Source: a virus
IMG/VR virus record: IMGVR_UViG_3300010885_080919
Location: 1 to 64,000 of that record
Length of the DNA stretch: 64,000 nt
Direction: 5' to 3' (one strand)
Below, one piece after another: positions 47,263 through 51,260 of this stretch. Under the pieces are notes generated by a model. The model did not search any database and was not told the origin of the DNA. It saw only the letters and a list, made by a program, of their open reading frames with translations. The stretch's first letter is position 1. Each line of letters starts with the position of its first letter. Made by a program: the position numbers and the translations under genes.

Positions 47263-47988
47263 ATGGGATTTGAAGTTTGTTATTATTTCCACGATAAAAT
47301 TAATGGCGAATACGACAAAGAAGAAATAAAAAGTTTCAAAAAGAAGGTAGGAGATCCTTTTGAGGAAACTCCCTTGGAGAAGCTATCTACAGCAATAATG
47401 GCCCAGTTAGCCAGAAGAGATATTTGGATTATCAATGTAGAGGTTTACGAGCTTTCTAAAAAGAAAATCACTTTTAAAGAAACAAAAGGTGGTATGATTA
47501 TAAAAAACAAGAAATTCTTGTTTGATTCTTTAGAAGGCCCAACATCAGTAGAGGATGAAGAAGAGACAAAATGCAATATGCAGCCTCACAACGCATTACA
47601 GCCCCATAATGCATTACAGCCTCACAATACTCTTAAACATCAAGCAAGTGTCTCTAATAGACGCATAGTAGATACAGTGGTCTATTCCCCAGAGCCTGCA
47701 CAGATCATAGAAGCAGAAAGAAAAAATTTAAAACTAACACTTGATAAAAAGTATTCTGTTTTTAAGAAAAGCGTATCTCCAACAGGTTTGGGAGAATTAT
47801 ATTTGATAGAAGATGACGCAGGAAAAGAAATCTCTGTATCAGACGTATATTTTGTACCAGCAGCAGTTAATTTGTATGCTGATAAAGAGTTAGATTTTTC
47901 AGGTGCTCGCAGTCAAAAAGAAGGAGTAAACCTTTTGTGGGGTGGTGCCTCTTTCGATGAAAACATGCCAAATATTCGTAAAAGGTGA
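47263..47988 (+). CDS. Hypothetical protein with 3x QPHNxL repeat
   Basis: ORF; 18-bp repeat at ~47578-47634. Confidence 0.75.
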   Translation: MGFEVCYYFHDKINGEYDKEEIKSFKKKVGDPFEETPLEKLSTAIMAQLARRDIWIINVEVYELSKKKITFKETKGGMIIKNKKFLFDSLEGPTSVEDEEETKCNMQPHNALQPHNALQPHNTLKHQASVSNRRIVDTVVYSPEPAQIIEAERKNLKLTLDKKYSVFKKSVSPTGLGELYLIEDDAGKEISVSDVYFVPAAVNLYADKELDFSGARSQKEGVNLLWGGASFDENMPNIRKR

Positions 47989-48518: not shown

Positions 48519-48577
48519 TCAAACCAGCGATGAGTTTTGAACACAAAACTTTATTTTTAACTATAGGAGTAACTATT

Positions 48578-49567
48578 ATGTCAACTGAATACGAAGCCCT
48601 TGATATGTCTCAAATGATCTCGGAATACGAGAGAGTCAGCCAAGAGCCTGGTGCCGCAAGAGGCGAAGATTATCTTGAAAAGTTTGTAAGACTGCCAGAT
48701 CGTGATGGATTTGTTTCGATGAGATTTCTGCCTCGCAAAAAGGGACAGAATTTTGTGTGTGTAACAAGAGTTCACACTCTTGTAAATCCTGCAACAAAGC
48801 AGAAGCGAACCTACCATTGCCGTAGAGAGCTTGTACACACAGACAAGGGGCCAAAGTGGCACGGTGATTGCATCATCTGTCGGTATTACTCTGACACATG
48901 GCAGCGATCAGAAGCTGTTAGCGGCAAAGCACAAGAAGATCTTCAGAATCAGGCAAGAGCCATTAAGCCTGTTGAAAGATATTATTACAATGTGATTGTT
49001 CGCTCTGCTAAAAATAAGGACGGCGTAGTAGAGTCTAATGTTGGTCCAAAGATTTATAGTTGCGGAAAGAGCCAGCACGCCAAGATTACACGTGCTATTG
49101 TAGGAGACGAGGTTGCTGGTGAAGCTCCTCTGGGCGACATCACACATCCAATTAATGGCCGAGATTTCAAGGTCGTTAAGAAGGTTGTCAAGGGTGGTGG
49201 AGGTCAGGAGTATCCTAATTATGATAGCTCCAAGTTCGAAGAACCTTCTCCTCTCGGAACCAAAGAAGAGATCTCGAATTGGATCGAAAAGGCCCATGAT
49301 CTTCAAACGCTCAGGGTCGTTAAGACTGACGAGGAACTCAAGCAGGCTTTGCGAGTCCATCTAGGCTTGGTCAAGGATTCAGATTCTTCGCAGAATGATG
49401 ACCTTGAGGAATTTAAGTCTGCAGGTCAATCAAGTAGTGCTCCTGCTCCTGTTGCTGCTTCGAAAATTAAAGAAGAAGTAAAGGTTTTAACTCCTAAGGC
49501 AGTTGAGTCTAACGATGAAGACTTGCTGGCAGACGACGATTTTATGCGTGAATTAGGATCTATGTGA
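48578..49567 (+). CDS. gp32-like single-stranded DNA-binding protein
   Basis: MRFLP, H...C...CIIC zinc ligands, RYYYNV, GRDF, YPNYDSSKF, acidic tail; AGGAG RBS. Confidence 0.85.
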   Translation: MSTEYEALDMSQMISEYERVSQEPGAARGEDYLEKFVRLPDRDGFVSMRFLPRKKGQNFVCVTRVHTLVNPATKQKRTYHCRRELVHTDKGPKWHGDCIICRYYSDTWQRSEAVSGKAQEDLQNQARAIKPVERYYYNVIVRSAKNKDGVVESNVGPKIYSCGKSQHAKITRAIVGDEVAGEAPLGDITHPINGRDFKVVKKVVKGGGGQEYPNYDSSKFEEPSPLGTKEEISNWIEKAHDLQTLRVVKTDEELKQALRVHLGLVKDSDSSQNDDLEEFKSAGQSSSAPAPVAASKIKEEVKVLTPKAVESNDEDLLADDDFMRELGSM

Positions 49568-49584
49568 TGTGACTCCTGTTCCGG

Positions 49585-49638
49585 TGGGGGGGTAGGAGAA
49601 ATGCTCCATACCCATCTTCTTCTACCCCCTCTTTTTTT
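49585..49638 (+). terminator. Intrinsic terminator after the SSB gene
   Basis: GGGGGGTAGGAGA / TCTTCTACCCCCT followed by a T-run. Confidence 0.65.
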
Positions 49639-49663
49639 ATATTTTACAATACAAGGAATTTTT

Positions 49664-50908
49664 ATGGCTAAGAAGAAAAATGCGGTTGATGCTGATGAAG
49701 AAGATAATTTCTTTGAGGATTTCGCAAAGAAAACTGGATGCGAAGTTCTTGATAAAATAGATAGTGTTAAATATTTTGTAGACACAGGCTCTTTAGCCTT
49801 GAACTACATATGCTCAGGAAAATTTATAGCTGGTGGTGTTCCGGGCGGCAAATTAACAGAAATATATGGCCCAAGCTCTTCTTCAAAGAGTTTAATTGGT
49901 ACGAATATATTGCATGGTTGCCAGAGAATGAAAGGAATTCCAATCCTTTTAGATTGCGAGAATTCTGCAAACAAAGAGTTTATTAAGAAGGCATCTCACT
50001 GCGATCTTAAAAAGGTGGCACGATGTGCTCCAGAAAGTTTGGAAGAAGTCTTTTTGAAGATGCACAAGATGATTGAATATGTGCGTGAGAAAAAAGATAA
50101 TAGTGTTCCAATTGTTATTTTGTACGATTCGATTGGAGTATCACCATCAGCCAGAGAGCTTAAAGAAGTAGCACTGCCTGAGAATTTTACAAAAGCAGAT
50201 TTCAAAAGAATAGTCGGAGGAAATGAGCAACCGGGCGAAAGAGCCAAGATTTGTTCAAAGGAATTCAGGAAACTGAACACCGCTTTGGAAAAGCATAATG
50301 CCACGGTTGTAATATTAAATCAGACTAGAGATAAAATCGGCGGTTTTGCTCCAATGGGAATGCAGGCAAAAACCACAGCGGGTGGTGGTAACGCTCTTCC
50401 TTTTTATGCTTCATGTCGCATAGAAACTAAGACCCAAATTAAAATTGACCGTAAAATTACGGCAACTAAGAAAAAGGTCTTGGGAATTAATGTCAAGATG
50501 AAGAATGTGAAAAACAAGACTCATAGGCCATTCATAGAGTCAGATAACATTCAACTATTGTTTGATAGAGGAGTTAATCCTTTGAGTGGTCTCTTGTCTT
50601 GTTTGATGGACGCAGATCGCATCGAAGCAAAGAGTGCAGGAAATTTTCTTGTCAAACAGCCATGGGCAGGAACAGAAGAAGAAGTAAAATTCAAGGCAAG
50701 CCTTGATCGAAATGATGTTCCTATGGATATTTTGCTCAAATGTCCAGGTTTAATCGATGCTGTTAGCGAAGAAGAAGTGAGAGAATATCTAGAACCTTTT
50801 ATGGAAGCAATTAATTTTGATCCTGAAAGCGACAAGGACATTGTCATCACTGATGTTTCCTCAGGATTTGATGATTACGGAATTGATGAAGATTTAGAAG
50901 CTGAGTAA
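49664..50908 (+). CDS. recA: RecA/UvsX recombinase
   Basis: DTGSLALN, EIYGPSSSSKS, DSI, ILNQTR, GGGNALPFYASCR, KNK..RPF. Confidence 0.92.
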   Translation: MAKKKNAVDADEEDNFFEDFAKKTGCEVLDKIDSVKYFVDTGSLALNYICSGKFIAGGVPGGKLTEIYGPSSSSKSLIGTNILHGCQRMKGIPILLDCENSANKEFIKKASHCDLKKVARCAPESLEEVFLKMHKMIEYVREKKDNSVPIVILYDSIGVSPSARELKEVALPENFTKADFKRIVGGNEQPGERAKICSKEFRKLNTALEKHNATVVILNQTRDKIGGFAPMGMQAKTTAGGGNALPFYASCRIETKTQIKIDRKITATKKKVLGINVKMKNVKNKTHRPFIESDNIQLLFDRGVNPLSGLLSCLMDADRIEAKSAGNFLVKQPWAGTEEEVKFKASLDRNDVPMDILLKCPGLIDAVSEEEVREYLEPFMEAINFDPESDKDIVITDVSSGFDDYGIDEDLEAE

Positions 50909-50922
50909 AAAATTATAAGAAT

Positions 50923-50961
50923 GGTGGGTGGTGCTAGTCCTTTTGGAAAGCACCACCCACC
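50923..50961 (+). other. GC-rich 13-bp hairpin just 5' of the tRNA
   Basis: GGTGGGTGGTGCT / AGCACCACCCACC. Confidence 0.7.
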
Positions 50962-50971
50962 GGAACTTTAT

Positions 50972-51242
50972 GGCCCCATCGTCTAACGGTTAGGACAGCA
51001 GACTTTCAAAAGGGAGTGCCTAAAGAGAAATCTTTAGAGTAGAATCGCTCAAAGTCGGTGAACGCTTTAAAATGCTAATACCGAGCCAAGCCTAAGTGAT
51101 TAGGAAGGTGTAGAGACTTGACGGGCGACACCTAAAGCAACAGCTATGGTGAAGGTAAAGTCCACAGACAAATCGAAAGAGCAACGAAAGTTGCAGTGTC
51201 TAGGTCAATCTGCTAATCGGAGTTCGATTCTCCGTGGGGTCA
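50972..51242 (+). tRNA. tRNA-Glu(UUC); exons 50972-51005 and 51205-51242; CCA not encoded
   Basis: Acceptor GGCCCCA/TGGGGTC, anticodon arm GCAGA-CTTTCAA-TCTGC after splicing, T arm CGGAG-TTCGATT-CTCCG. Confidence 0.9.
51006..51204 (+). mobile_element. Group I self-splicing intron (199 nt, no ORF) in the tRNA anticodon
   Basis: P1 ACUUUC/GGGAGU with U.G at the splice site, P/Q AAAGUCGGUGAA / AAUACCGAG, R GUAGAGACU, S AAGGUAAAGUCC, terminal G. Confidence 0.88.
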
Positions 51243-51260
51243 CTTTAAAATTTAAATTAA

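Follow-up and report, generated by a model that had tools for sequence, protein, structure and literature searches.

A group I intron inside the anticodon of a phage tRNA-Glu(UUC) gene and its relatives in other phage tRNA genes

The split tRNA gene and its neighbourhood

The window, that is, the whole 64,000-nucleotide stretch of DNA analysed here, is the first 64 kb of an IMG/VR viral contig of 98,320 bp with a G+C content of 34%. CheckV puts the completeness of the 98-kb contig at about 20%, and so it is probably a piece of a very large phage. A gp32-like SSB gene and then a UvsX-like recombinase gene (48530-50908), which together form a T4-type recombination module, lie directly upstream of a tRNA gene that starts 63 bases downstream of the uvsX-like stop at 50908. 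The UvsX-like protein has at most about 30% identity to cultured phages. Downstream of the tRNA are three small ORFs with no family match, followed by an amidoligase and a helicase (Pfam and PHROGs). No homing endonuclease was found among the flanking ORFs, which in Pfam and PHROGs gave gp32, RecA/UvsX, amidoligase, helicase or no match. As for the kinship of the carrier phage, a megablast of 20 kb against phage records gave no match and a tblastn comparison of 132 contig ORFs with the fetched viral loci gave scattered matches only.

The features around the tRNA are the following; the exon parts were assigned with ARAGORN on the joined exons.

50923-50961, + strand: perfect 12-bp hairpin with arms GGTGGGTGGTGC and GCACCACCCACC, an exact inverted pair, and a 15-nt loop
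50972-51005, + strand: tRNA-Glu exon 1 (acceptor 5' strand, D arm, anticodon stem 5' strand, C32 U33 U34)
51006-51204, + strand: group I intron, IC3-like, 199 nt, ORF-less (RF00028)
51205-51242, + strand: tRNA-Glu exon 2 (U35 C36 A37 A38, anticodon stem 3' strand, 4-nt variable loop, T arm, acceptor 3' strand, discriminator A)

The hairpin lies between the uvsX-like stop codon and the tRNA and has no U tract; it is a possible terminator or processing element. Looser copies of its arm occur at 47937 and 53956. A search for a sigma-70-type promoter or terminator for the tRNA gave nothing convincing.

With the intron removed (51005 joined to 51205), ARAGORN finds a clean 72-nt cloverleaf, tRNA-Glu(UUC), that has a 7-nt anticodon loop, CUUUCAA. 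The predicted joined exons read ...GCAGACUUUCAAUCUGC..., with the junction (slash) in ...GACUU/UCAAUC.... The discriminator A is 51242, C51243 could be C74, and the remainder of the CCA is not encoded. As read from the cloverleaf, the spliced body has U11-A24, U13•G22, A46 and a 4-nt variable loop with no position 47. The U11-A24 and U13•G22 pairs, A46 and the 4-nt variable loop are typical of bacterial tRNA-Glu and belong to E. coli GluRS recognition. When the two exons were compared separately with phage records by blastn, the matches were mostly annotated tRNA-Glu genes. For example, in the uninterrupted tRNA-Glu gene of Streptomyces phage Blueeyedbeauty the exon 1 match ends at 94722 and the exon 2 match begins at 94723. 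GAA is the second commonest codon in the long ORFs of the contig (52.6 per thousand, with a GAA:GAG ratio of 3.3:1), so that a phage-borne tRNA-Glu(UUC) would be sensible as codon supply. We consider it likely that the gene, which is interrupted between U34 and U35, provides a working tRNA-Glu(UUC) to a large uncultured phage. A preliminary description of this DNA had placed a 199-nt ORF-less intron after U34 of a tRNA-Glu(UUC), with exons at 50972-51005 and 51205-51242, and all of its coordinates are correct.

The gene is easily overlooked. On the unspliced 64-kb window and on the 98-kb contig ARAGORN reports zero tRNAs, and the split tRNA-Glu is the sole tRNA gene on the contig; because standard tRNA finders miss it, the contig appears to be tRNA-free. 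In its intron mode ARAGORN calls a tRNA-SeC(tca) i(39,187) at 50972-51243. This call, with a 187-nt intron at position 39, is ruled out because the base ahead of its 5' splice site is an A and because it would cut P9 in two; it is an artefact of a TCAA duplication described below. Anyone who looks for suppressor tRNAs in large phages could be misled by such an SeC(UCA) miscall and take the gene for that of an opal-suppressor or SeC tRNA.

Structure of the intron and choice of the splice junction

The Rfam model RF00028 matches 50996-51185 on the + strand over its full length (1-253), with 59.4 bits against a gathering score of 50 and an E value of 1.5e-12. This is the only gathering-level Rfam match in the window, and the contig has no further RF00028 match. 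No ORF of 50 or more amino acids lies within 51006-51204. To call the intron minimal, as had been done, was an overstatement, since members of its family range from 183 to 263 nt.

The helices P1, P2, P3, P4, P5, P6, P6a, P7, P8, P9, P9a and P9b were drawn by hand and counted on a MAFFT alignment of 35 family introns (alignment A1). The predicted elements, with what the alignment adds to them, are as follows.

51002-51017, + strand: P1 hairpin; 51002-51007 pairs with the guide 51012-51017 (GGGAGU), loop AAAA, splice-site wobble U51005•G51014
51020-51037, + strand: P2, 7 bp with a GAAA tetraloop; 7 of 7 pairs changed on both sides across the family
51045-51050, + strand: P3 5' strand, partner 51123-51128; 4 of 6 pairs compensatory, 100% of cells paired
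51055-51084, + strand: P4 (51055-59 with 51080-84) with a short P5 (51063-65 with 51074-76) inside it
51085-51109, + strand: P6 (GCC/GGU) with the P6a hairpin 51091-51104 (GUGA loop) inside it
51105-51124, + strand: core 20-mer AAGGUGUAGAGACUUGACGG, with the P6 3' strand, J6/7 and the P7 5' strand (51113-51118); family-invariant columns in A1
51129-51151, + strand: P8, with the motif CCUAAAG...CUAUGG
51166-51204, + strand: P9 domain; closing helix 51166-70 with 51197-201, P9a 51173-80 and P9b 51181-94, both with GAAA loops, then a tail A G and the terminal G51204

The P7 strand 51113-51118 pairs with 51159-51163. On A1, 88.6% of the cells are in standard pairs, compared with 32-42% when the 3' partners are slid by one to three columns, and compensatory change is seen at 38 of the 59 pairs; none of 500 shuffles reached the observed values. 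The core helices are almost fully paired (P3 as listed, P4 99.4%, P6 100%, P7 99.4% and P8 98.6%), and the P3/P7 pseudoknot is present. The P9 closing helix is only 33.5% paired on A1, which is an effect of the alignment caused by a one-base register difference in the window sequence, and this helix was also counted alignment-free. The sole non-pair in the drawn model is C51063/U51076, in P5. An unconstrained minimum free energy fold recovers P1, P2, P3, P5, P6a, P8, P9, P9a, P9b and the anticodon stem (z-score -1.9). We take the P8 motif, from its appearance and by comparison with the Azoarcus intron, to resemble a tetraloop receptor.

All 56 of the family-invariant columns are kept in the window intron. 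Compared with its nearest relative, nine pairs are altered on both sides with the pairing retained, and these double changes suggest that the ribozyme stayed under selection. As judged from sequence and covariation, 51006-51204 is an intact, compact group I intron of the IC3 type that presumably splices.

The position of the splice junction needs some discussion. Exon 2 and the intron both begin with TCAA, and the last base of the intron is G. The repeat of TCAA at both sites means that five pairs of cuts would yield an identical mature RNA. Only one of the five, 51005/51205, combines a U before the 5' site with a G as the final intron base. In P1, U51005 forms a wobble with G51014, a column that is U•G in 31 of 33 relatives; U51004 instead pairs with A51015. 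At the other end, the P9 closing helix of 40 of the 46 unique relatives consists of 5 perfect base pairs, and exactly three bases, the last of them a G, come after it; the window intron has AGACA/UGUCU followed by A-G-G51204, so that the terminal G is the third base after the helix. The terminal G thus fixes the junction, as had been proposed. Finally, U51205 and C51206 of exon 2 can pair with G51013 and G51012 as a 2-bp P10. The predicted junction 51005/51205 is selected by the wobble, the terminal G and P9 tail, P10, and the fact that the two exons are contiguous in annotated tRNA-Glu genes.

Joining 51004 to 51204, with an intron that ends at G51203, would also give a cloverleaf, which ARAGORN calls tRNA-Asp(GUC), and this RNA might be made beside the Glu form. 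The Asp junction, like 51005/51205, has a U at position -1 and a G at the intron end. However, its U51004 is paired with A51015 and so there is no wobble, P10 is impossible because a G would face a G, and the P9 tail would have two bases instead of the three found in the family. In addition, the tRNA body is of the Glu type, and each exon has its matches in tRNA-Glu genes. The P1 wobble, P10, the length of the P9 tail and the Glu-type exons led us to reject the Asp(GUC) junction, which we regard as extremely improbable, and 51005/51205 is used below.

The intron family in phage tRNA genes

To sample the family, IMG/VR was searched with the invariant 20-mer AAGGTGTAGAGACTTGACGG, which gave at least 119 stretches. 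Roughly two thirds of the 123 listed stretches with this core (L007 to L125 in our numbering) are in phage tRNA genes, and these represent at least seven anticodon classes. Hosts were assigned from a U at position -1, a G as the last intron base, an anticodon stem of 5 bp and the ARAGORN call for the joined exons. Among the matches listed, 67 introns were resolved, of which 46 are unique. Most of the hosts in this set are Leu(UAA), interrupted after U34. The other hosts among the matches listed are Lys(UUU), Arg(UCU) interrupted after U33 or U34, Thr(UGU), Ser(UGA) and Met/Ile2(CAU) interrupted after position 36. Among these same matches the window intron is alone in having a Glu host.

The relationship to described tRNA introns is indicated by blastn matches to tRNA-Leu introns, by a tree that includes cyanobacterial, proteobacterial and phage Leu introns, and by a core like that in the rows examined from the seed alignment of Williams 2020. 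The maximum-likelihood tree contains 62 introns, bacterial and cyanobacterial Leu introns included, and is based on about 200 columns; its bootstrap was unsettled, and so the supports are rough. The window intron groups with L111 and L118, two phage introns from tRNA-Lys(UUU) to which it is 79% identical, with a rough support of 98/95, and this group is nested in a clade of phage Leu(UAA) introns. The class of the host changes at least 11 times across the 62-intron tree.

The longest and strongest blastn match in phage records (168 nt, 77% identity) is to an intron in LR756501.1, a 735-kb uncultured phage. There, an unannotated tRNA-Leu(UAA) (L001:345-640) has a 205-nt group I intron that scores 56.6 bits with RF00028. 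The cultured 490-kb Agrobacterium phage Atu_ph07 (MF403008.1) also has an unannotated tRNA-Leu(UAA) (L002:352-715, complement of approximately 112888-113251), which is split after U34 by a related 278-nt insert (L002:387-664; 71% match) that is below the Rfam gathering score; a CDS for a 'hypothetical protein', AUZ94936.1, is annotated over exon 2 of this tRNA-Leu. Shorter blastn matches, limited to the core, occur at 82-87% in introns of phage protein genes. The capsid genes of Pelagibacter phage HTVC120P (L003) and KM23-C739 (L004), for example, are each annotated as two unjoined CDS that flank a related group I intron.

The guide displays an interesting pattern. In these introns, the two to four guide bases immediately before the wobble G form pairs with the start of the intron's own exon 2, as follows.

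Leu: guide UUU, exon 2 AAA
Lys: guide UAG or UUAA, exon 2 UUA(A)
Arg(UCU).3: guide UAG, exon 2 CUA
Thr: guide UAC, exon 2 GUA
Glu (window): guide GG, exon 2 UC

The mean pairing is 2.4 bp with the intron's own exon 2 compared with 0.50 ± 0.16 bp when the exon 2 is taken from a different class (2000 draws, maximum 1.14). The guide bases beside the wobble G co-vary with the exon 2 of the host across the family. The family is therefore a natural series of retargeted ribozymes that could be used to study how tRNA introns change hosts.

This pattern also bears on the TCAA duplication, which had been noted in the preliminary description and is real. It is peculiar to the window intron; the remaining 45 unique family introns have zero to two bases in common with their own exon 2. 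The intron's own UC and the UC of exon 2 would compete for the same two guide Gs, which explains the first two bases of the duplication, and its AA, which is in the P1 loop, is best read as coincidence. Consequently, the earlier proposal that one guide forms P1 and then P10 holds in that G51012 and G51013 pair with U51006 and C51007 and can then pair with U51205 and C51206; it goes too far in that just two of the four duplicated bases matter.

Several scans were made for a second Glu host. The family core with GTCAA or GTCAC gave no second Glu intron in 2.9 million viral contigs, and the core with GTCAA gave no Glu intron in the genomes of 185,579 prokaryote species, one genome per species, or in 241 million metagenome records. 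A scan for a Glu-type D arm together with the family motif GAGCCAAG gave no second Glu case, and searches with the exact intron-bearing and intron-less alleles of the window tRNA gave no other copy of either. These pattern scans require exact matches, and divergent Glu cases could escape them. Each of the scan matches was checked, and they were either fortuitous matches inside Leu, fMet or Arg introns or neighbouring intact tRNAs. Two stretches (L076 and L091) that share CUUUCAA at the boundary of exon 1 and the intron turned out to have Lys.4Ug introns. With neither a second Glu intron nor an intron-less allele, these scans gave no sign of a presence/absence polymorphism or of recent mobility.

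The literature gives a similar picture. A 2014 review placed every phage group I intron then known in protein genes (PMC3984707). Devoto et al. 2019 stated that phage tRNA introns had been unreported until then and left those of their Lak phages unclassified (PMC6784885). Williams 2020 raised the number of bacterial tRNA intron classes from 4 to 21 and used no phage data. The settings in its seed alignment include Leu, Arg, fMet, Met, Thr, Ile2, Lys, Ser, Tyr, Asp, Asn and Phe, and there is no Glu row among the 22 tRNA class names of that alignment. In one report (PMC9840617) most of the tRNA introns of chloroplasts are given the label 'group I' with no ribozyme analysis, and for this reason it was not counted as a precedent. 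We found no published account of a group I intron in tRNA-Glu from a bacterium or a phage. The earlier remark that a Glu host is unusual is well founded, as Glu is neither among the four classical classes nor, as far as it goes, in the Williams 2020 seed list, and the pattern scans gave no second case. Membership in the intron family stands, and Glu is a new host class with no precedent in the scans made or in the literature searched. Thus, tRNA-Glu joins the hosts of tRNA group I introns, and the pattern of phage tRNA introns described here is not yet in printed reviews.

Origin of the intron and comparison with known systems

Splicing would follow the ordinary group I mechanism. The exon bases A C U U (51002-51005) and the intron's U C would pair with the guide 5'-GGGAGU-3' to form P1, and free guanosine would attack after U51005, which is held in the U•G wobble. 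The U C of exon 2 would then replace the U C of the intron on the same two guide Gs as the 2-bp P10, assisted by the anticodon stem GCAGA/UCUGC. The terminal G51204 would enter the G site and the exons would be joined.

As to its origin, the intron may descend from one in a phage tRNA-Lys(UUU) or tRNA-Leu(UAA), with its guide retuned. The transfer could have occurred by recombination or by reverse splicing into a tRNA in which N-C-U-U precedes the site. That the family occurs in many U34 tRNAs would result from the need of the ribozyme for a U before the splice site together with its short, retunable guide. The intron is most simply regarded as a neutral or selfish passenger that was retargeted to a new U34 tRNA, with its neutrality presumed. 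A working ribozyme in tRNA-Glu, the ordinary splicing mechanism and a passenger origin together make up the explanation that we think is probably correct. Three points count against it: P10 has just two base pairs, P5 has one mismatch (C51063/U51076) and the gene is a singleton.

The same points could indicate that the intron or the tRNA is decaying, so that the gene is dead and tRNA-Glu is no longer made. The gene is a singleton across all of the collections scanned, and the P5 mismatch, the short P10 and the CCA that is not encoded would fit with this explanation. However, a dead gene would not be expected to have kept all 56 family-invariant columns and all of its core helices intact, nor a perfect cloverleaf in which the D arm is of the Glu type and the variable loop has 4 nt, and compensatory changes have occurred since the split from its nearest kin. 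Decay is thus very unlikely. The compensatory changes, which show that the ribozyme is under selection, could be taken in another way, namely that the intron is kept because it benefits the phage. The split gene or its precursor might evade nucleases that act on anticodon loops or tRNA genes, or splicing might time the supply of tRNA-Glu. Family introns are frequent in phage U34 tRNA genes (Leu, Lys, Arg and here Glu, among the matches listed), and some of these U34 tRNAs are anticodon-nuclease targets. It might even be that the retunable guide lets the element be shifted to any tRNA that needs cover. However, selection for splicing is expected of any intron in a needed gene and is uninformative about an advantage, and the mature tRNA is an ordinary one that would be no less exposed than others. 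Furthermore, the host range is accounted for by the U at position -1 and the short guide, and no defence or counter-defence gene is linked to the tRNA among its neighbours, which are gp32-like, UvsX-like, amidoligase and helicase genes. A benefit to the phage is very unlikely in our estimation, and we would say the same of a guide that moves the element to where cover is needed. The preliminary description had suggested gating of the tRNA supply and protection against anticodon nucleases or integration; these roles find no support, given that the spliced tRNA is ordinary and that the U34 spread is explained by the U and a retunable guide. The retargeted passenger is the interpretation that we favor.

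Among known systems, the introns of tRNA-Leu(UAA) are similar to the window intron in their insertion after U34 (CUU/...), in the pairing of ACUU with GAGU and in having a compact IC3-type core with no ORF. They differ in their host, which here is tRNA-Glu(UUC), and in the P10 guide, which is GG (with UC) here and UUU (with AAA) in Leu; in addition, unlike the bacterial and plastid tRNA-Leu introns, the window intron is carried by a phage. The closest relatives, L111 and L118 (IMG/VR contigs 3300027741_000022 and 3300048670_001253), are in tRNA-Lys(UUU) and correspond to the class that Williams 2020 names 'Lys.3Ug'. They share the site and the GAGUGCC at the guide and P2 start with the window intron, whereas their P10 guide is UUAA rather than GG and their P9 closing helix is ACUAC/GUAGU rather than AGACA/UGUCU. 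No genes in common were detected between their contigs and the window contig in the stretches compared.

The tRNA-Ile(CAU) intron of Azoarcus ('Ile2.5Ug') is the structural model of IC3 introns (PMC13168695). It resembles the window intron in its size of about 200 nt, the GAAA loops on P2 and P9 and a P8 like CCUAAG...UAUGG, and the core 20-mer is one base off in the seed row Aol6.Ile2.5Ug that was examined. However, the Azoarcus intron is inserted after position 36, has another guide and a longer P5/P6, and resides in a bacterium. The introns of phage protein genes (the T4 td/nrdB/sunY type, the pelagiphage capsid introns L003 and L004, and those of the Jug phages, PMC12880540) are likewise phage-borne and of the self-splicing type. 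The pelagiphage introns have a core 20-mer identical to that of the window intron, and L004 scores 78 bits with RF00028. Those introns interrupt coding sequences, often with homing endonucleases, whereas the window intron is located in a tRNA and has none.
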